Shown: in pieces, positions 4,578 to 60,413 of the stretch | How the letters are laid out: each line of letters starts with the position of its first letter | Position numbering within the stretch: the stretch's first letter is position 1 | Assembly: GCF_003334385.1 (NCBI RefSeq) | Contig: NZ_QOWN01000005.1 | Length of the DNA: 64,000 nucleotides | Strand: one strand, 5' to 3' | Source of the DNA: Escherichia coli | GTDB lineage: Bacteria; Pseudomonadota; Gammaproteobacteria; Enterobacterales; Enterobacteriaceae | Made by a program: the position numbers and the translations under genes | Notes under the pieces: model-generated | Told to the model about the DNA's origin: nothing | Seen by the model: the letters and a program-made list of their open reading frames with translations, nothing else | The model's database searches: none

Positions 4578-4737
4578 GGGTTATTCCTTATCTATCTAAT
4601 AACGTTGAGTTTTCTGGAACCTGTCCCATTGAACTCTCGCCGGAAAGCTCAATAAGACAGGTTCTACGTTTAGTTGCCGCGCTTTTATATGCGCTTGATT
4701 TACAACATCTTCTGGATAATTTTTACCAGAAAAATCA

Positions 4738-15164: not shown

Positions 15165-15373
<209 letters not shown>

Positions 15374-15377
<4 letters not shown>

Positions 15378-15763: not shown

Positions 15764-15822
15764 TGTCTTAAACCTATAAAAAAGGCGCAGAATCCTGCGC
15801 CTTTTACTTCAACAGTTAGCTT

Positions 15823-18528
15823 TTATTGCAGGCGGCCATGGCACTGCTTGTATTTTTTACCAGAACCGCACGGGCAAGGATCGTTACGTCCTACTTTGCG
15901 CTCTCCGGTTTGCGCCGCCAGTGCAGCTGCGGCTGCAGAGTCGTCATCCTGATGGCTAAGCTGCTGCATTTGCGCTAAACGCTCGGCTTCCATACGACGC
16001 TGTTGTTCCAGCTCCTCAACCTCTTCAGGCATACGTACCTGAACTTTGCTCAGCGTACTGATAACTTCATATTTCAACGACTCCAGCATCGCTGCAAACA
16101 TGGAGAACGATTCACGTTTGTATTCCTGCTTCGGATCTTTCTGTGCGTAGCCACGCAGGTGGATACCCTGACGCAGATAGTCCATCGCTGCCAGGTGCTC
16201 TTTCCACAGGGAGTCAAGCGTTTGCAGCATGACGCCTTTCTCGAAGTGACGCATCATCTCAGCACCAACCACTTCTTCTTTACGCTGATACACTTCGATG
16301 GACTGCGCCAGAATGCGCTCACGCAGCGTCTCTTCATGCAGTTCTGGTTCTTTATCCAGCCACTCGGCAATTGGCAAATCGAGGTCGAAATCGTTCTTCA
16401 GACGTTCCTGCAGCCCCGGAATATCCCACATTTCTTCCAGCGACTGTGGTGGAATGTAGGCATCAATGGTCGCTTTGAACACATCTTCACGAATGCTGTT
16501 AATGGTTTCGCTCACATCGCTGACATCCAACAGTTCGTTACGCTGGGAGTAAATGGCGCGACGCTGATCGTTAGCCACGTCATCATATTCCAGCAGTTGC
16601 TTACGAATGTCGAAGTTACGGCTTTCAACTTTACGCTGGGCGTTGGCAATCGCTTTAGTCACCCACGGGTGTTCAATGGCTTCGCCTGGCTTCATACCCA
16701 GTTTACGCATCATGCCGGATACTCGGTCGGAAGCAAAAATACGCATCAGCGCATCTTCCATCGACAGGTAGAAACGGGAAGAACCAGCATCCCCCTGACG
16801 ACCAGAACGACCGCGCAACTGGTTATCGATACGACGGGATTCGTGACGCTCGGTACCGATGATATGCAGGCCACCTGCTTCCAGTACCGCATCGTGACGT
16901 ACCTGCCAGTCGGCTTTAATTTTTTCAATTTGCTCTGCGGTCGGATTTTCCAGCGCGGCAACTTCTGCCTGCCAGCTACCACCGAGCACAATATCTGTAC
17001 CACGACCCGCCATATTGGTCGCGATAGTCACCGCAGCCGGATAACCTGCCTGAGCAACAATCGCCGCTTCGTTGGCGTGGAATTTGGCGTTCAGGACGTT
17101 GTGCTTAATACCGGCTTTGGTCAGTTCGTTTGACACCAGCTCCGATTTTTCGATGGAGATAGTACCCACCAGCACCGGCTGGCCTTTCGCAGTACGTTCT
17201 TTGATATCTTCAATGATCGCCTGAATTTTTTCCGCTTCAGTCATGTAGACCAGGTCCGGCAGATCTTTACGAATCATTGGACGGTTGGTCGGAACAACGA
17301 CGGTATCCAGCTTGTAGATTGAGCTAAATTCGAAAGCTTCGGTATCAGCAGTACCGGTCATCCCCGCCAGTTTTTCATACAGACGGAAGTAGTTCTGGAA
17401 GGTGATCGAAGCCAGCGTTTGGTTTTCGTTCTGGATCTGCACACCTTCTTTCGCTTCCACAGCCTGGTGCAGACCATCGGACCAGCGACGGCCCTGCATG
17501 GTACGACCGGTGTGTTCGTCAACGATGATAACTTCACCATCTTTAACGATGTAGTCGACGTCACGGGTAAACAGCGCATGAGCGCGCAGCGCCGCCGTTA
17601 CGTGGTGCATCAGCATGATGTTGGCCGGAGAGTACAGAGACTCCCCTTCATCCATGATGCCCTCTTTCACCAGCAGTTCTTCAATCAGCACCAGACCACG
17701 TTCGGTCAGGTTCACCTGGCGAGATTTTTCGTCCACCGAGAAGTGGCCTTCGCCCTGGAAGGTTTCGGAGTCTTCTTTTTCCTGACGGATCAGGTGCGGA
17801 ATAATTTTATTCACGCGTTTATACATTTCCGAGCTGTCTTCTGCCGGGCCGGAAATGATCAGCGGTGTACGCGCTTCATCGATCAGGATGGAGTCCACTT
17901 CGTCCACCAGCGCATAGTGCAGTTTACGCTGTACACGTTCTTCAGGGCTGAACGCCATGTTGTCGCGCAGGTAGTCAAAGCCGTATTCGTTGTTCGTACC
18001 GTAAGTGATGTCAGCTGCGTAAGCTTCGCGCTTTGCCGGTGCTGGCATGCCCGGCAGGTTGATACCGACAGTCAGGCCAAGGAATTCAAACAGCGGACGG
18101 TTGTTTTCGGCGTCACGTTGCGCCAGGTAGTCGTTGACGGTAACTACGTGCACGCCTTTACCGGTTAGTGCGTTCAGGTAAGCAGGCAGCGTTGCGGTCA
18201 GGGTTTTTCCTTCACCGGTACGCATTTCGGCGATGCAGCGTTCGTTAAGAACCATACCGCCGAGTAACTGAACGTCGAAGTGACGCATACCAAAGACGCG
18301 CTTACTTGCCTCACGTACCACGGCGAAAGCTTCCGGGATCAGATTTTCCAGCACTTCGCCTTTTTCCAGACGTGCACGAAACTCTGCGGTTTTCCCTTTC
18401 AGTTCTTCGTCGGAGAGTTTTTCCATCTCCGGTTCCATGGCATTGATGATGTTGACCACTTTGCGCATCCGGCGCAGGGTGCGATCGTTACGACTACCGA
18501 AAACTTTAGTTAACAATTTGATTAGCAT
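15823..18528 (-). CDS. secA: Preprotein translocase ATPase SecA
   Basis: 901-aa ORF beginning [23 protein letters not shown] and ending with the zinc-binding tail [17 protein letters not shown]. Confidence 0.98.
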
Positions 18529-20350: not shown

Positions 20351-21502
20351 TTAATCAGCTTGCTTACGCAGGAATGCTGGGATATCCAGATAATCCGGCT
20401 CTTTCGCAGTTTGCGGCGCATTGTCATTCACGACTTTAGCAACCGGCTTCTGCTCCTGGGTCAGCGGAGCCATCCCATGCTGCTGGTAGCGATCCATCAC
20501 TGGCTGCTGAACCTGCTTATTGGTCACCAGAGTGATTTCAGGACGTTTGTCCATGCCGATACCTGTCGCAACAACGGTTACGCGCAGCTCGTCATTCATA
20601 TCCGGGTCAAGAGAAGTACCGATAACCACAGTCGCGTTGTCGGAAGCAAATGCACGGATGGTGTTACCTACCGTTTCGAACTCATCCAGACGCAGGTCGA
20701 AGCCCGCCGTGATGTTAACCAGCACGCCGCGCGCGCCAGACAGGTCGATATCTTCCAGCAGCGGAGAAGAGATAGCCATTTCAGCAGCTTCTTCCGCACG
20801 GTCTTCACCGCTCGCCACGCCAGAACCCATCATTGCGTAGCCCATCTCAGACATTACGGTGCGTACGTCTGCAAAGTCCACGTTCATCAAACCCGGACGA
20901 GTAATCAGTTCAGCGATACCTTGCACAGCGCCTTTCAGTACATCGTTCGCTGCGCCAAACGCATCCAGCAGGGAGATACCGCGGCCCAGAACTTTCAGCA
21001 GTTTGTCGTTCGGGATAGTGATCAGAGAGTCCACATGCTTGGACAGTTCAGTGATCCCCTGCTCCGCGAATGCCATACGCTTCTTGCCTTCAAAGTTGAA
21101 AGGCTTAGTGACGACAGCAACGGTCAGGATACCCAAATCTTTTGCCACTTCAGCGACGACTGGTGCTGCACCTGTACCGGTACCACCACCCATACCCGCA
21201 GCAATAAAGACCATGTCTGCACCTTCCAGCGCCGCACGCAATGCATCGCGATCCTCATCAGCCGCATTGCGGCCAACTTCTGGATTAGCGCCAGCGCCCA
21301 GTCCTTTGGTGATACCGCTACCGATTTGAATCGTCTGTCCAACCGCTGTTTTACGCAGCGCTTGTGCATCGGTATTTACCGCGAAGAATTCAACACCTTC
21401 AATGCGCTCGCGCACCATGTGTTCAACAGCATTACCGCCGCCGCCGCCGACGCCGATGACTTTAATCACCGCGTCATTGGTAAGTTCCATTGGTTCAAAC
21501 AT
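20351..21502 (-). CDS. ftsZ: Cell division GTPase FtsZ
   Basis: 383-aa ORF with the tubulin signature GGGTGTG. Confidence 0.98.
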
Positions 21503-21562
21503 AGTTTCTCTCCGATTTGTGCCTGTCGCCTGAGGCCGTAATCATCGTCGGCCTCATAAAAA

Positions 21563-22825
21563 TTAAAACTCTTTTCGCAGCCAACTATTGAGTCGCTTGA
21601 TCCACGAGCCAACTGATGCTGTAACACGTTTTTCTACTTCAGCTTCACCGTTAAGATGTGACTCTTTCCCATAGTGAAGCAATCCCACCGCCGTCGAATA
21701 ATACGGCTCCTGAGCATAATCCGTTAAACCGGTAATGTTCAGCGGCGCGCCGATACGCACTTGCGTATGAAACACGCGCTGAGCACAGGCTGCAAGACCT
21801 TCGATCTGCGCTGCGCCACCGGTTAATACAATGCCTGCCGCCAGGTGATGTTTAACCCCTTGTTGGCGAAGCTTTTCCTGCAACTGCAATATCTCTTCGT
21901 TGACCAGGTTGAGCAGCTCGGTATAGCGCGGCTCGATCACCTCTGCCAGTGTCTGACGTTGCAGACTCCGTGGCGGACGACCACCTACGCTCGGCACTTC
22001 CACGCTCTCATCTTTTCCAACGATGGAACCCAGCGCACAACCGTGGCGAACTTTAATCGCTTCGGCGTCGCTTGGCGGCGTGCCAAAGGCGTAAGCGATA
22101 TCACTGGTCACGACATTGCCAGCATAAGGAATTACCTTAGTGTGGCGCAATGCCCCACCGGTATAAACGGCGATATCCATTGTACCACCACCGATATCGA
22201 CGACGCAGACACCCAGTTCACGTTCATCTTCCGTCAATACCGAATAACTTGATGCCAGTCCGGCAAATATCAGTTGGTCAACTTTCAGCCCACAACGTTC
22301 AACCGCTTTGACGATGTTTTTCGCCATATCGTTGTGACATGTGATCAGGTGCACTTTTGCCTGCATCCGCACGCCCGAAAGTCCTACCGGATTCTTGATC
22401 CCTTCCTGATAGTCAATCGCATACTCTTGCGGGATCACATGCAGCACACGATGCTCATCGCGCACACGCACCGATTTCGCGGTATGGACGACGTTTTCCA
22501 CATCTTCTTGCGTCACTTCTTCTTCAGAAATAGGCACCATACCAATTTCATTCTGGCAGCTGATGTGCTTACCAGAAAGCGCCAGATATACCGAAGAGAT
22601 CTGACAATCTGCCATCAATTCTGCCTGGTCAATGGCGCGTTGTACGCACTTGACCACGGATTCGAGGTCGTTCACCCCGCCTTTATCCATACCACGCGAC
22701 GGGCAGCTGCCCACGCCAATGATATTGACCATACCGTCGGGCAGAACTTCCCCTACTAAAGCGGCAACCTTCGCGGTACCAATCTCCAGTCCTACTACCA
22801 GTTTTCTGTCCGTCGCCTTGATCAT
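21563..22825 (-). CDS. ftsA: Cell division protein FtsA (actin-like ATPase)
   Basis: 420-aa ORF beginning [27 protein letters not shown]. Confidence 0.98.
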
Positions 22826-42439: not shown

Positions 42440-43098
42440 ACTTAACTCCACTGTCACACTTAACTCCCTTTCCCTTATTGGAATGCAGAGAAATAATCCT
42501 GAAGAATATGATTTATCATGCATATAAAATAAGAAAAAGCAAAATGAGTAAAATTCGGAAAACATAAAGATACGGGTTCTGATAAAAACAGAATCCATTG
42601 CCGTGGAATGAGTCATTTACCACAGCATAATAATCCATAATATTTTTGTTGCGAAAACAATCTAATCATAACTACCGCGAATACTCAATCATCTACAAAA
42701 TGGATTAAATGTGCTTATTTAATAATTAATTTATATATTTAATGCATTAATTCTTAACATTAATTGATCAATAATATTCACCAAATCAATATCAAAAAAA
42801 ATCGCAAAACATATAATTCAATACAAATCATCAGGATAGGTTTTGCAACGCGTGCATTTTGTCCCCTTTTTCCTCGTTGATTAGATGCAAAAATTTATGC
42901 TGAAATATGTCAACCGATGAAAAGCGTCGGTAGTTAAGCAGAAATTAATATCGCTTACTTTAACCACCGCAGCACAATTAGCTAATTTTACGGATGCAGA
43001 ACTCACGCTGGCGGGACGTTTTTATTGCGTCAGGGTTGACATCCGTTTTTGTATCCAGTAACTCTAAAAGCATATCGCATTCATCTGGAGCTGATTTA

Positions 43099-43185
43099 AT
43101 GACTCACATCGTTCGCTTTATCGGTCTACTACTACTAAACGCATCTTCTTTGCGCGGTAGACGAGTGAGCGGCATCCAGCATTAA
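43099..43185 (+). CDS. leuL: leu operon leader peptide (28 aa, four consecutive Leu codons)
   Basis: [28 protein letters not shown] read at the 3' end of the 63-aa track ORF; followed by the attenuator hairpin. Confidence 0.9.
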
Positions 43186-43204
43186 GCCAGCACGCAGTCA
43201 AACA

Positions 43205-43235
43205 AAAAACCCGCGCCATTGCGCGGGTTTTTTTA
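43205..43235 (+). terminator. leu attenuator terminator (CCCGCGC catt GCGCGGG followed by T7)
   Basis: GC-rich hairpin with a run of 7 T, located between leuL and leuA. Confidence 0.85.
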
Positions 43236-49213: not shown

Positions 49214-49440
49214 AAAAAAAACCAGCAGGTATAATCTGCTGGCGGGTGATTTTACACCAATACTCAGTCACACATGATGCAGGCAAGTCAACTTTCAGAA
49301 TTGCGGTCATCCCACTGCATCAGTCCTTCAAGCATGGTTAATCGTTGTGGGACGCTTAACCAACGCAACCAGCACAACTTCGCTGTCGCGGTAAAATAGT
49401 GCTGATAAAACTGACGCATGGGGCACCCCCTTGCTTCATC
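49214..49440 (-). ncRNA. sgrS: SgrS small RNA (glucose-phosphate stress; encodes SgrT and carries the base-pairing region plus terminator)
   Basis: Minus-strand sequence GATGAAGCAAGGGGGTGCCCCATG...GTGTGACTGAGTATTGGTGTAAAATCACCCGCCAGCAGATTATACCTGCTGG followed by T8; divergent from sgrR. Confidence 0.85.
49288..49419 (-). CDS. sgrT: SgrT small protein (43 aa) encoded inside SgrS
   Basis: MRQFYQHYFTATAKLCWLRWLSVPQRLTMLEGLMQWDDRNSES read from the ATG at 49417-49419. Confidence 0.85.
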   Translation of the reverse strand: MRQFYQHYFTATAKLCWLRWLSVPQRLTMLEGLMQWDDRNSES

Positions 49441-49507: not shown

Positions 49508-51163
49508 ATGCCATCTGCTCGTCTGCAACAACAGTTCATCCGCCTGTGGCAATGCTGCGAGGGTAAATCGCAGGACACAACGCTCAACGAACTGGCAGCG
49601 TTATTGAGCTGCTCGCGTCGTCATATGCGCACCCTGCTCAACACCATGCAGGATCGCGGCTGGCTGACGTGGGAAGCGGAAGTCGGGCGCGGTAAACGCT
49701 CGCGTCTGACATTCCTCTATACCGGGCTGGCGCTTCAGCAACAGCGGGCGGAAGACCTGCTGGAGCAGGATCGTATCGATCAACTGGTGCAGTTGGTTGG
49801 CGACAAAGCGACTGTGCGGCAAATGCTGGTTTCTCATCTGGGCCGCAGCTTCCGCCAGGGGCGGCACATCCTGCGCGTGCTCTACTATCGTCCGTTGCGT
49901 AATCTGCTACCTGGCAGCGCATTGCGCCGTTCCGAAACCCATATCGCCCGGCAAATCTTCAGTTCGCTAACGCGCATAAATGAGGAAAATGGGGAACTGG
50001 AAGCAGACATCGCCCACCACTGGCAGCAAATTTCACCGCTTCACTGGCGTTTCTTTTTGCGTCCAGGAGTCCATTTTCACCATGGTCGTGAACTGGAAAT
50101 GGACGATGTGATCGCCTCTTTAAAACGAATCAATACGCTGCCGCTCTATTCGCATATTGCTGACATTGTGTCGCCGACGCCCTGGACGCTGGATATCCAT
50201 CTCACGCAACCGGACCGCTGGTTACCGTTACTGCTGGGGCAAGTTCCGGCGATGATCCTGCCGCGCGAATGGGAAACCCTCAGTAACTTTGCCAGCCATC
50301 CCATCGGCACCGGTCCGTATGCGGTGATTCGCAACAGCACCAATCAACTGAAAATTCAGGCATTCGATGACTTCTTCGGTTACCGGGCATTAATCGACGA
50401 AGTTAACGTCTGGGTTCTGCCGGAAATTGCCGACGAGCCAGCCGGAGGGCTGATGCTAAAAGGTCCACAGGGCGAGGAAAAAGAGATTGAAAGCCGCCTG
50501 GAGGAAGGTTGCTACTATTTACTGTTCGACAGCCGCACCCATCGCGGGGCGAATCAGCAAGTCAGGGACTGGGTAAGCTATGTGCTTTCTCCAACTAATC
50601 TGGTCTATTTCGCTGAGGAACAGTACCAGCAACTGTGGTTCCCGGCTTATGGACTGCTCCCCCGTTGGCACCATGCCCGCACCATAAAGAGCGAAAAACC
50701 GGCTGGCCTGGAAAGCCTCACCCTAACCTTTTATCAGGATCACAGTGAGCATCGGGTGATTGCCGGGATCATGCAGCAGATTCTGGCAAGTCACCAGGTC
50801 ACGCTGAAAATCAAAGAGATCGACTACGATCAGTGGCATACAGGAGAGATCGAAAGTGATATCTGGCTAAACAGCGCCAACTTTACCCTGCCGCTGGACT
50901 TCTCTGTTTTCGCACATTTATGCGAAGTGCCACTGCTACAACATTGCATTCCCATTGACTGGCAAGCCGACGCTGCTCGCTGGCGCAATGGCGAGATGAA
51001 TCTGGCGAACTGGTGCCAGCAACTGGTCGCCAGCAAAGCGATGGTGCCATTATTGCACCACTGGCTGATCATTCAGGGGCAACGCAGTATGCGCGGCCTG
51101 CGCATGAATACCCTCGGCTGGTTCGATTTTAAATCAGCGTGGTTTGCGCCACCGGATCCATGA
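49508..51163 (+). CDS. sgrR: Transcriptional activator SgrR (N-terminal wHTH DNA-binding domain, C-terminal solute-binding-protein-like domain)
   Basis: Track ORF trimmed to [44 protein letters not shown]... (551 aa); SD AGGAG at 49494-49498. Confidence 0.94.
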
Positions 51164-51204
51164 TTGCTGGTTGATAACAAAATCACTACACTAACGCCGT
51201 TCTC

Positions 51205-51300
51205 AACGGGGTGCCACGCGTACGCGTGCGCTGAGAAAATACCCGTCGAACCTGATCCGGATAACGCCGGCGAAGGGATTTGAGGCTCCTTCTCAAGTCC
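51205..51300 (+). promoter_or_regulatory. TPP riboswitch (thi-box) in the thiBPQ leader
   Basis: GGGGTGCC...CTGAGA AAATACCCGT CGAACCTGATCCGGATAACGCCGGCGAAGGGA matches the conserved THI element core (CUGAGA / ACCUGAUC.GGAUAAUGCC.GCGAAGGGA). Confidence 0.85.
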
Positions 51301-51326
51301 TTTGCCACTCTTTTTTGAGGTGCAAA

Positions 51327-52310
51327 GTGTTAAAAAAATGTCTGCCCCTGCTGTTGCTGTGCACAGCGCCCGTTTTCGCTAAACCCGTTCTGACTGTTTA
51401 TACCTACGATTCCTTCGCCGCCGACTGGGGGCCTGGTCCGGTGGTTAAAAAAGCCTTTGAAGCCGACTGTAATTGCGAACTGAAACTGGTGGCGCTGGAA
51501 GATGGCGTTTCGCTTCTCAACCGTCTACGGATGGAAGGCAAAAACAGTAAAACCGATGTGGTGCTGGGGCTGGATAACAACCTGTTAGACGCCGCCAGTA
51601 AAACCGGACTGTTTGCCAAAAGCGGTGTGGCAGCGGATGCCGTTAACGTTCCCGGCGGCTGGAATAATGACACTTTCGTACCGTTTGATTATGGCTACTT
51701 CGCCTTCGTTTATGACAAGAACAAACTGAAAAACCCGCCACAAAGCCTGAAAGAACTGGTTGAGAGCGATCAAAACTGGCGGGTGATTTATCAGGATCCG
51801 CGCACCAGTACACCGGGGCTGGGTCTGTTGCTATGGATGCAAAAAGTCTATGGCGATGACGCCCCACAAGCCTGGCAGAAACTGGCGAAGAAAACGGTCA
51901 CGGTCACCAAAGGCTGGAGCGAAGCCTACGGCCTGTTTTTAAAAGGTGAAAGCGATCTGGTACTGAGTTACACCACCTCTCCGGCTTATCACATTCTCGA
52001 AGAGAAGAAAGATAACTACGCCGCCGCGAACTTCAGCGAAGGTCACTATCTGCAAGTGGAAGTCGCCGCCCGCACCGCTGCCAGCAAGCAGCCGGAGCTG
52101 GCGCAAAAATTCCTCCAGTTTATGGTTTCTCCGGCTTTCCAGAATGCGATCCCAACCGGCAACTGGATGTATCCGGTGGCAAACGTCACGCTGCCTGCCG
52201 GTTTTGAAAAATTGACCAAACCCGCAACCACGTTGGAGTTCACGCCAGCCGAAGTGGCGGCACAACGTCAGGCATGGATTAGCGAATGGCAACGCGCCGT
52301 CAGCCGTTAA
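51327..52310 (+). CDS. thiB: Thiamine/TPP ABC transporter periplasmic binding protein
   Basis: 327-aa reading from the GTG at 51327 (SD GAGG 51317-51320): LKKCLPLLLLCTAPVFAKPVLTVYTYDSF with a signal peptide. Confidence 0.94.
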   Translation: MLKKCLPLLLLCTAPVFAKPVLTVYTYDSFAADWGPGPVVKKAFEADCNCELKLVALEDGVSLLNRLRMEGKNSKTDVVLGLDNNLLDAASKTGLFAKSGVAADAVNVPGGWNNDTFVPFDYGYFAFVYDKNKLKNPPQSLKELVESDQNWRVIYQDPRTSTPGLGLLLWMQKVYGDDAPQAWQKLAKKTVTVTKGWSEAYGLFLKGESDLVLSYTTSPAYHILEEKKDNYAAANFSEGHYLQVEVAARTAASKQPELAQKFLQFMVSPAFQNAIPTGNWMYPVANVTLPAGFEKLTKPATTLEFTPAEVAAQRQAWISEWQRAVSR

Positions 52311-53896
52311 TTCCCGGCTGGTTAATTCCAGGTGTAAGCGCCACCACGCTGGTGGTAGCGGTTGCGCTGGCGGCGTTTCTCGCCCTGTGGTGGAACGCGC
52401 CGCAGGATGACTGGGTGGCAGTCTGGCAGGACAGCTATCTGTGGCATGTGGTGCGCTTCTCCTTCTGGCAGGCGTTTCTCTCGGCACTGCTCTCTGTCAT
52501 ACCCGCGATATTCCTCGCCCGCGCGCTCTATCGCAGGCGCTTTCCGGGTCGGCTGGCGCTGTTGCGTCTGTGTGCAATGACCTTGATCCTCCCGGTGTTG
52601 GTCGCTGTTTTCGGCATTCTTAGCGTCTATGGTCGCCAGGGCTGGCTGGCAACACTCTGCCAATCGCTCGGTCTGGAGTGGACCTTTTCGCCCTACGGCC
52701 TGCAAGGTATTTTGCTGGCCCATGTGTTTTTTAATCTGCCGATGGCGAGCCGCTTATTACTCCAGGCACTGGAAAACATCCCCGGCGAACAGCGTCAACT
52801 TGCCGCCCAGCTTGGGATGCGTAGCTGGCATTTTTTCCGCTTCGTCGAATGGCCGTGGTTACGGCGACAAATCCCGCCGGTTGCTGCGCTTATCTTTATG
52901 CTCTGTTTCGCCAGCTTCGCCACCGTGCTATCGCTGGGGGGCGGTCCGCAGGCGACCACTATCGAGCTGGCAATCTATCAGGCGCTGAGTTACGACTACG
53001 ATCCTGCCCGCGCGGCAATGCTGGCGCTGCTCCAGATGGTGTGCTGCCTCGGGCTGGTGCTGTTGAGTCAGCGATTGAGTAAGGCCATTGCGCCCGGCAC
53101 CACGCTGCTGCAAGGCTGGCGCGACCCGGACGATCGTCTGCATAGCCGCATTTGCGACACGGTGTTAATTGTGCTGGCGCTGCTGCTGTTGCTGCCACCG
53201 TTACTGGCGGTGATCGTCGATGGGGTAAATCGCCAGTTGCCGGAAGTGCTGGCACAACCGGTGCTGTGGCAGGCGCTGTGGACCTCGTTGCGTATTGCGC
53301 TGGCGGCAGGTGTATTGTGCGTAGTGCTGACCATGATGCTGCTATGGAGCAGTCGCGAACTGCGGGCGCGGCAGAAAATGCTGGCGGGTCAGGTGCTGGA
53401 GATGAGCGGCATGTTGATCCTCGCCATGCCGGGGATTGTGCTGGCTACCGGCTTCTTTTTACTGCTCAACAACACTATCGGCCTGCCACAATCTGCTGAC
53501 GGCATTGTGATTTTCACCAATGCGTTAATGGCGATCCCTTATGCGCTGAAAGTGCTGGAAAACCCGATGCGCGATATCACCGCCCGCTACAGCATGTTAT
53601 GTCAGTCGCTGGGGATTGAAGGCTGGTCACGCTTAAAAGTGGTGGAGCTGCGCGCCCTGAAACGTCCACTGGCGCAGGCGCTGGCCTTTGCATGCGTGCT
53701 GTCGATTGGTGATTTTGGCGTGGTGGCGTTGTTCGGTAACGATGATTTCCGCACCCTGCCGTTTTATCTCTACCAGCAAATTGGCTCCTATCGCAGCCAG
53801 GACGGTGCGGTCACCGCGTTAATTCTGCTGCTGCTCTGTTTTCTGCTGTTTACCGTGATTGAAAAACTACCGGGGCGAAATGTTAAAACTGACTGA
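52286..53896 (+). CDS. thiP: Thiamine ABC transporter permease
   Basis: 536-aa polytopic membrane ORF with two ABC permease domains; overlaps the thiB 3' end. Confidence 0.95.
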
Positions 53897-54578
53897 TATC
53901 ACCTGGCTTTACCACCATTTGCCGATGCGTTTTAGCTTAACGGTGGAACGCGGCGAGCAGGTGGCGATCCTCGGGCCAAGCGGCGCGGGTAAAAGTACCC
54001 TGCTGAATTTGATCGCCGGTTTTCTGACGCCAGCCAGCGGTTCGCTGACTATCGATGGCGTAGATCACACAACTATGCCGCCGTCACGCCGTCCGGTGTC
54101 GATGCTGTTTCAGGAGAACAACCTGTTCAGCCACCTGACGGTCGCACAGAACATCGGGCTGGGGCTAAATCCGGGATTGAAACTGAACGCGGTACAGCAG
54201 GGGAAAATGCACGCTATCGCCCGCCAGATGGGGATTGATAATTTAATGGCGCGGTTACCGGGCGAGCTTTCCGGCGGTCAGCGACAGCGAGTGGCGTTAG
54301 CGCGTTGTCTGGTACGCGAACAGCCGATTTTATTGCTCGATGAACCGTTCTCTGCGCTCGATCCGGCGTTACGTCAGGAGATGTTGACGCTGGTGAGCAC
54401 GAGCTGCCAGCAGCAAAAAATGACGCTATTGATGGTGTCGCACAGCGTGGAAGATGCGGCGCGGATCGCCACGCGCTCGGTAGTAGTCGCCGACGGGCGC
54501 ATCGCCTGGCAGGGTATGACCAATGAGTTGTTGAGCGGTAAGGCGAGTGCTTCGGCACTATTGGGGATTACGGGTTAG
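53880..54578 (+). CDS. thiQ: Thiamine ABC transporter ATP-binding protein
   Basis: Track ORF trimmed to [13 protein letters not shown]... (232 aa); Walker [13 protein letters not shown] signature LSGGQRQR. Confidence 0.95.
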
Positions 54579-59978: not shown

Positions 59979-60413
59979 GCATCCGGTATGTAACACCTGA
60001 TGCGACGCTGACGCGTCTTATCTGGCCTACACGCTGCGATTTTGTAGGCCGGATAAGCAAAGCGCATCCGGCATTCAACGCCTGATGCGACGCTGGCGCG
60101 TCTTATCAGGCCTACGCGCTGCGATTTTGTAGGCCGGATAAGCAAAGCGCATCCGGCATTCAACGCCTGATGCGACGCTGGCGCGTCTTATCAGGCCTAC
60201 GCGCTGCGATTTTGTAGGCCGGATAAGCAAAGCGCATCCGGCATTCAACGCCTGATGCGACGCTGGCGCGTCTTATCAGGCCTACGCGCTGCGATTTTGT
60301 AGGCCGGATAAGCAAAGCGCATCCGGCATTCAACGCCTGATGCGACGCTGGCGCGTCTTATCAGGCCTACACGCTGCGATTTTGTAGGCCGGATAAGCAA
60401 AGCGCATCCGGCA
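59979..60413. repeat. Tandem BIME array: five complete 85-bp units (starting at 59979, 60064, 60149, 60234, 60319) plus a partial sixth, each unit holding an inverted REP pair
   Basis: Unit GCATCCGGCATTCAACGCCTGATGCGACGCTGGCGCGTCTTATCAGGCCTACGCGCTGCGATTTTGTAGGCCGGATAAGCAAAGC repeats with an exact 85-bp period; fills the araA-araD spacer. Confidence 0.9.

Follow-up and report, generated by a model that had tools for sequence, protein, structure and literature searches.

The TPP riboswitch ahead of thiBPQ in an Escherichia coli chromosomal segment, and the conserved GTG start codon of thiB

The thiB riboswitch is one of three textbook TPP riboswitches of Escherichia coli, and its mechanism was dissected in 2023 on the exact sequence described here (Berman et al. 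2023, RNA 29:1658; PMC10578472). In that study, a wild-type reporter was repressed by TPP, aptamer point mutants such as G17C lost repression and were constitutively ON, and the TPP response disappeared when a mutation destabilized the hairpin in which the ribosome-binding site (RBS) is paired. Single-round in vitro transcription yielded full-length product only, at every TPP concentration, and bicyclomycin was without effect on TPP repression of the reporter. Deletion or randomization of linker nucleotides 95–99 left the switch constitutively OFF; these nucleotides are identical to nucleotides 5–9 of the P1 5' strand, and pair with the 3' strand of P1 to give an antisequestering helix. Equilibrium and cotranscriptional probing did not decide the switching regime (PMC10578472).

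Our window, meaning the whole 64-kb stretch of DNA that was analyzed, is an E. coli chromosomal segment that corresponds to the reverse complement of MG1655 at ~70–78 kb. According to the open reading frame (ORF) list and the MG1655 annotation, the gene order is sgrS/sgrT, sgrR, a short intergenic leader, thiB-thiP-thiQ, yabI and araC, and the flanks sgrS, sgrR, thiBPQ, yabI and araC are shared between the window and MG1655. The element in the leader is the same as the K-12 thiB (tbpA) riboswitch/SroA, and the leader is identical to that of MG1655 base for base, from the sgrR stop codon to past the thiB start, so that the published K-12 experiments apply to it directly. The numbering used by Berman et al. 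(142 nt, from the transcription start site to thiB +12; PMC10578472) fits the window only if nucleotide 1 is position 51197 and the thiB start is position 51327; with this assignment, nucleotides 5–9 and 95–99 both read UCUCA, and nucleotide 17 is a G. [quoted passage not shown] The features to which we refer are listed below.

51161–51163: stop codon (TGA) of sgrR.
51164–51169, + strand: putative weak -35-like hexamer TTGCTG, read from the sequence.
51187–51192, + strand: putative -10-like hexamer TACACT of the thiBPQ/sroA promoter, proposed from cross-genus conservation.
51199–51291, + strand: SroA, a 93-nt stable RNA that equals the aptamer domain (MG1655 sroA, b4762, 75516–75608, mapped via the thiB start).
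51201–51206/51280–51285, 51207–51212/51239–51245 and 51213–51219/51224–51231, + strand: aptamer helices P1, P2 and P3, respectively (cmscan).
51251–51253/51274–51276 and 51257–51260/51267–51270, + strand: aptamer helices P4 and P5, respectively (cmscan).
51231–51278, + strand: thi-box core CUGAGA ... ACCUGAUC ... GCGAAGGGA, read from the sequence.
51291–51306, + strand: linker that serves as 'invader' strand in the antisequestering helix and pairs with 51269–51285 (folding, conservation and PMC10578472).
51300–51327, + strand: sequestering stem, in which CUUUGC (51300–51305) pairs with GCAAAG (51322–51327), and CUC (51308–51310) with GAG (51317–51319).
51317–51322, + strand: Shine-Dalgarno sequence GAGG(UG), with an anti-Shine-Dalgarno duplex of -6.9 kcal/mol.
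51327–51329, + strand: GTG start codon of thiB, whose first G closes the sequestering stem (RefSeq coding sequence; 77/77 loci).
51327–52310, + strand: thiB (tbpA), encoding the periplasmic thiamine-binding protein (ORF and annotation).
52286–53896, + strand: thiP, encoding the ABC transporter permease and overlapping the end of thiB (ORF and annotation).
53880–54578, + strand: thiQ, encoding the ABC transporter ATPase (ORF ending at 54578; MG1655 thiQ is 699 nt).

A cmscan search matched Rfam family RF00059 (TPP, THI element) to positions 51197–51296 on the + strand over the full length of the model (1–105 of 105); its score of 65.9 bits exceeds the gathering score, which is 54.3 bits. The E-values, 1e-10 over the 64-kb window and 5e-13 in a local search, place this match far beyond chance, and a RefSeq feature named 'TPP riboswitch' has precisely the coordinates 51197–51296. 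The first-pass annotation, which had proposed a TPP riboswitch ahead of thiBPQ and named a covariance-model scan as the check, is thus borne out both by the match above the gathering score and by the RefSeq feature at the same coordinates. The span that it gave (51205–51329) was correct in location; its left edge was wrong, dropping the first bases of P1, and its right edge marks the end of the start codon, while the sequestering helix already ends at 51327. Every one of the aptamer pairs listed above is standard. The helices form a three-way junction in which P1 closes a pyrimidine-sensor arm (P2/P3, with CUGAGA in J3-2) and a pyrophosphate-sensor arm (P4/P5, with ACCUGAUC ... GCG.AGGGA), and both conserved segments can be read directly, as CTGAGA at 51231–51236 and ACCTGATCCGGATAACGCCGGCGAAGGGA at 51250–51278. 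In the cmscan alignment P1, P2, P3, P4 and P5 are all present, and the sole missing stem is the optional P3a. A gap of 30 nt separates the aptamer from thiB, which heads the thiBPQ operon and lies downstream on the same strand. The same arrangement recurs elsewhere: 85 stretches share the aptamer core, and all 77 that could be scored have thiB downstream in frame, with a conserved GTG.

Two other candidate features at this site were set aside. A match to MIR8139 at 51272–51305 reached only 17.5 bits where the gathering score is 90 (E-value 0.38), and we attribute it to chance; it mirrors the antisequestering hairpin. A minus-strand ORF of 40 amino acids (51186–51308) lies inside the riboswitch, is unannotated in the two reference records that were opened, and was treated as spurious. 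Elsewhere in the window, Rfam matched SgrS at 49214–49440 (- strand; 228.8 bits) and the leucine operon leader at 43085–43234 (+ strand; 145.8 bits), both of them expected neighbors in this part of the E. coli chromosome. Four copies of the REP-type element naRNA4 are spaced 85 nt apart at 60047–60367 (+ strand; 60.2 bits each, gathering score 59.5), and two stronger copies are located at 15181–15374 (- strand). Also above their gathering scores were tp2 at 4580–4693 (+ strand; 103.4 bits), STnc40 at 15778–15847 (- strand; 84 bits), and PssrA ('plasmid-encoded Shigella sRNA A') at 21494–21583 (- strand; 105.5 bits), whose presence in the chromosome may mark an insertion-sequence remnant.

The region between sgrR and the aptamer is short. 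The -35-like TTGCTG begins one base past the sgrR stop codon, matches TTGACA at 3/6 positions, and lies 17 nt upstream of the -10-like hexamer; the latter ends 6 nt before the annotated sroA 5' end (51199). Examination of 68 related loci with enough flanking sequence revealed TACACT or TACAAT at a fixed distance upstream of P1, with TACAAT in most other genera. A consensus promoter scan reported no promoter at its thresholds, and the two hexamers are put forward as the probable thiBPQ promoter on the basis of the -10 conservation and of published start-site mapping. Approximately 5,400 of 5,426 complete E. coli genomes carry the riboswitch region, and in about 1,000 of these 5,400 the query did not align in one piece over sgrR and the riboswitch. 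One such genome that we opened, that of strain GPEC1337, has the type III secretion system (T3SS) effector gene espY2 upstream on the opposite strand, and its homology to the window starts at ~51162; the thiB promoter block is kept there, despite the replacement of sgrR by espY2.

Downstream of the aptamer, the linker contains UCUCA (51291–51295), a copy of the P1 5' strand at 51201–51205, and the partner of the linker (51269–51285) covers the 3' strand of P1 together with the 3' side of P4/P5. Minimum free energy (MFE) folding gave -11.6 kcal/mol for the sequestering stem, and the MFE fold also holds a hairpin between 51277–51285 and 51291–51299. The extended antisequestering helix (16 bp; 51269–51285 with 51291–51306) has a value of -21.3 kcal/mol, about equal to that of the short hairpin and the sequestering stem taken together (-20.5 kcal/mol). 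P1, the antisequestering helix and the sequestering helix are mutually exclusive in pairs, the antisequestering helix overlapping the sequestering stem at 51300–51306 and P1 at 51280–51285. A clear ON state with a free Shine-Dalgarno sequence was absent from equilibrium folding, in which the unpaired probability was 0.23 for the free RNA and 0.20 with the aptamer forced, indicating that switching must involve kinetics or a ligand energy outside the model. Berman et al. likewise consider the folding pathway and the energy of ligand binding to be important (PMC10578472). For this reason, the direction of switching given below is based on the published mutagenesis and probing, and not on thermodynamics. 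That the expression platform sequesters the Shine-Dalgarno sequence had been presumed in the first-pass annotation; our folding predicts it, and the mutagenesis of the exact sequence in PMC10578472 shows it.

In the mechanism that best accounts for these data, transcription begins at ~51197–51199, from a putative weak promoter immediately next to the sgrR stop codon, and the first ~90 nt fold into the TPP aptamer. With TPP bound, P1 and P4/P5 are held shut, and CUUUGC...CUC (51300–51310) then pairs with GAG...GCAAAG (51317–51327), burying the GAGG of the Shine-Dalgarno sequence and the first base of GUG 51327 in the sequestering stem, so that thiB goes untranslated. Without TPP, the linker (51291–51306), which repeats the P1 5' strand, invades P1 and the 3' side of the aptamer, and the resulting antisequestering helix uses up the 5' arm of the sequestering stem, leaving the ribosome-binding site open. 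The present analysis supplies the match to the aptamer model, the three mutually exclusive helices with their conservation, and the finding that the GTG and its Shine-Dalgarno sequence are conserved; the TPP response, the translational control and the requirement for the linker come from the published experiments on the identical sequence (PMC10578472). We are highly confident that the thiB leader is a translational OFF switch of the thiamine ABC-importer operon thiBPQ.

Comparison of 74 distinct leaders demonstrated hardly any change between GGGAUUUGAG and GAGGUGCAAAGUG, CUCAAAAUCCUUUGCC included. The sequestering helix was pairable in 95.9% of cells, compared to 33–58% in a slid register, and the antisequestering helix in 93.5%, compared to 36–66%; the pairs that never vary number 6 of 9 in the former and 8 of 16 in the latter. 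Covariation was close to nil, with a single compensatory change from A-U to G-C (Dickeya) and with shuffles matching the observed scores, the helices barely varying at all. We take the conservation of the platform as a sign of constraint and of pairing potential, and not as proof of pairing. Among six E. coli strains, chosen to span the diversity of the genomes that carry the region, the leader from promoter to start was invariant save for the P3 loop (51220–51222) and T51315. The loop triplet GTA is replaced by AAA, AGC or AGA among strains, and T51315G, found in strains MS21324 and NR379, converts the upstream in-frame TTG into GTG.

Some of the related loci showed peculiarities of their own. 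Klebsiella, Raoultella and some Citrobacter (L031, L039, L040, L053, L064, L065, L074, L084 and others) have a far longer P3 arm, with ~35 extra nt between GGGGTG and GCTGAGA relative to E. coli, in agreement with the larger SroA-hybridizing transcript of K. pneumoniae (PMC3511261). The aptamer-core pattern was also matched in three metagenome-assembled genome (MAG) contigs labelled Syntrophaceae (L016, 4265–4312; L017, 983–1030; L035, 873–920), where no thiB lies downstream of the match; in L016, the next ORFs resemble a fragment of a group II intron reverse transcriptase and a large serine recombinase.

RefSeq and MG1655 both begin the thiB coding sequence at GTG 51327 (984 nt, 327 amino acids). 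The first 18 residues (51327–51380, VLKKCLPLLLLCTAPVFA) form a Sec signal peptide, in which an n-region containing KK precedes the hydrophobic core and the cleavage motif VFA. Residues 19–327 align to PDB entry 2QRY, the crystallized E. coli thiamine-binding protein, with one substitution (E-value 1e-211), Thr76 (51552–51554) in place of Ala. The 2QRY chain starts at mature Lys19, in agreement with an 18-residue signal peptide; because the construct begins at that residue, the structure gives no information on where translation initiates.

The only in-frame start codons between the stop at 51192 and position 51400 are TTG 51315, GTG 51327 and TTG 51354, and the last of these falls within the hydrophobic core of the signal peptide. 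To compare start regions, one genome per species was searched for the thiB-type aptamer core, which occupies 51231–51278 in the window (41 specified bases), giving the 85 stretches mentioned above, most of them from Enterobacteriaceae and Pectobacteriaceae; 77, from ~25 enterobacterial genera, have a readable start region. The sample was chosen on the aptamer and not on the start region, which avoids selection bias, and the species are related, so the counts are not independent. The riboswitch-adjacent GTG was present in 77/77 leaders, each time preceded by GAGG or GGAG, and the anti-Shine-Dalgarno duplex ahead of it averaged -6.8 kcal/mol. In the window, the last G of GAGG (51317–51320) is 7 nt ahead of the G of the GTG, leaving a 6-nt spacer. 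The codon four positions upstream of the GTG (TTG 51315 in our sequence) is a start codon in 46 of the 77 loci (TTG 34, ATG 10, GTG 2), a non-start sense codon in 29 (CTG 13, CAG 13, AAG 2, TCG 1), and a stop codon in two (TAG, TAA). No Shine-Dalgarno sequence was found before this upstream codon in the 77 loci, where the duplex averaged +2.1 kcal/mol and was -2.2 kcal/mol at best. Variation within E. coli proved uninformative as start-codon evidence, with T51315G only swapping TTG for GTG.

These results bear on whether translation could begin at TTG 51315, giving a precursor four residues longer (MRCK-VLKK...). The codon is a permitted start, in frame and followed by no intervening stop, its position is occupied by TTG, ATG or GTG in 46/77 loci and by GTG in some E. 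coli strains, and the longer product would still have a plausible signal peptide. On this last point the first-pass annotation had gone too far in calling GTG 51327 the only start compatible with the signal peptide: initiation at TTG 51315 merely adds MRCK to a positively charged n-region, and because these four residues would be tolerated, the signal peptide does not exclude it. The two codons are separated instead by the position of the Shine-Dalgarno sequence and by cross-genus conservation. TTG 51315 has no Shine-Dalgarno sequence (+1.5 kcal/mol here, as against -6.9 kcal/mol before the GTG), overlaps that of the GTG, and corresponds to non-start sense codons in 29 loci and to stop codons in two, whereas the GTG is used by all annotations and by both experimental papers (PMC10578472, PMC3511261). 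In Salmonella Typhimurium, tbpA has a GTG start 129 nt downstream of the start site mapped by 5'-RACE (PMC3511261). Initiation at TTG 51315 is accordingly very improbable, and thiB starts at GTG 51327, as first annotated and as supported by RefSeq, MG1655, Salmonella and 77/77 leaders. Comparison across genera thus backs the GTG start without recourse to annotation pipelines.

Other accounts of the leader concern what follows sequestration and what becomes of the RNA. In the native operon the riboswitch could act also, or mainly, via Rho-dependent termination inside thiB, since sequestration of the RBS would leave an untranslated thiB mRNA open to Rho; we give this reading slightly less than an even chance. 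ChIP-qPCR in a rho R66S mutant yielded Rho termination scores of 3.0 for thiB and 2.8 for thiM (PMC5499598), RNA polymerase pauses by the RBS/start codon at ~117 and ~136, with TPP shortening the ~117 pause (PMC5234074), and the Berman reporter held only 12 nt of thiB, so that any rut sites within the ORF were absent from it (PMC10578472). However, TPP repression of that reporter was unchanged by bicyclomycin, indicating that the core switch works without Rho (PMC10578472). A Rho layer in the native thiBPQ operon is plausible, and 'translation only' may be an incomplete description there, given the Rho score of 3.0 (PMC5499598). Intrinsic attenuation, in which the sequestering hairpin and the U/A-rich run downstream would act as a Rho-independent terminator with SroA as the terminated product, has in our view almost no chance of being correct. 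One review assumes that SroA arises from attenuated transcription (PMC3384567), but a scan of the + strand from 50800 to 51500 found no terminator-like site, only full-length RNA was made in vitro at every TPP concentration (PMC10578472), and the 3' end of SroA at 51291 lies upstream of the sequestering hairpin. It is also improbable that SroA acts in trans as a small RNA in its own right, with a function apart from cis control of thiBPQ. A discrete RNA of ~93–100 nt does accumulate, according to the MG1655 annotation and to Northern blots in Salmonella, and deletion of Salmonella sroA lowers tigecycline survival, which a plasmid copy complements, and competitive fitness in mice (PMC3511261; PMC3384567). 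The deletion, however, also takes away the thiBPQ start site and the riboswitch, making cis effects possible, as the authors themselves state (PMC3511261); the review terms the function of SroA unclear (PMC3384567), no target of SroA is known to have been validated, and the SroA 3' end falls between the aptamer and the platform, as would be expected if decay or processing of the RNA left the structured aptamer behind as a stable product.

Within the translational OFF switch, the rare GUG start codon may itself be a part, its first G pairing with C51300 to close the sequestering helix. The change G51327A weakens the sequestering stem from -11.6 to -9.0 kcal/mol, and this cost of ~2.6 kcal/mol for AUG could explain why GUG is invariant in 77 leaders from ~25 genera and the neighboring codon takes nine forms. 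We offer this role for the GUG tentatively, as a conjecture that is on balance unlikely, and we hold in the same doubt its corollary, that RNA structure, in addition to translation efficiency, would select the identity of the start codon.

Several loci in the comparative set have unusual start regions. The upstream codon is ATG (ATGAGGTGCAAAGTG) in L018, L028, L039, L062, L064, L065, L072, L074, L078 and L079, which belong to Citrobacter, Raoultella, Kosakonia cowanii and some Enterobacter; this ATG overlaps the Shine-Dalgarno sequence and has none of its own, and thiB may be given a wrong start there by gene callers with a preference for ATG. More generally, gene callers are likely to be misled by the ATG or TTG that some genera, among them Citrobacter, Raoultella and Kosakonia (K. 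cowanii), have four codons upstream. An in-frame insertion of 10–17 codons follows the GTG in Symbiopectobacterium and a 'Serratia marcescens' record (L032, L043, L044), in Pectobacterium (L070) and in Brenneria (L077). In these Pectobacteriaceae-type loci the insertion precedes the usual signal peptide, and in L070 it is followed by a second VLK... start-like segment. The N terminus would thus be either greatly extended or partly duplicated in these loci, and the true start may lie further downstream. In Enterobacter sp. EA-1 (L050), the start region of thiB is shifted (GAGGTGCAAAGTGTGAAAAAA) and a frameshift occurs ~30 codons on, so this thiB is either a pseudogene or an assembly error.

We found no difference from K-12 within the element, and ThiB carries Thr76 where 2QRY has Ala. 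The other two E. coli riboswitches considered here, those of thiM and thiC, have the same aptamer class as thiB. The thiM riboswitch controls a different operon, thiMD, and its aptamer junction spacing differs from that of thiB; it reads CUGAGA-AAU-ACCC and has a longer J2-4. As in thiB, TPP leads to sequestration of both the Shine-Dalgarno sequence and the start codon of thiM (PMC10578472), and Rho involvement has been demonstrated for thiM (PMC5499598). In thiC, a regulatory RNA polymerase pause occurs near the start codon (PMC5234074), and the optional P3a insertion is present, whereas the corresponding columns are deleted in thiB in the cmscan alignment. Rho-dependent termination is also strong in thiC, which scores 12, compared to 3.0 for thiB (PMC5499598).
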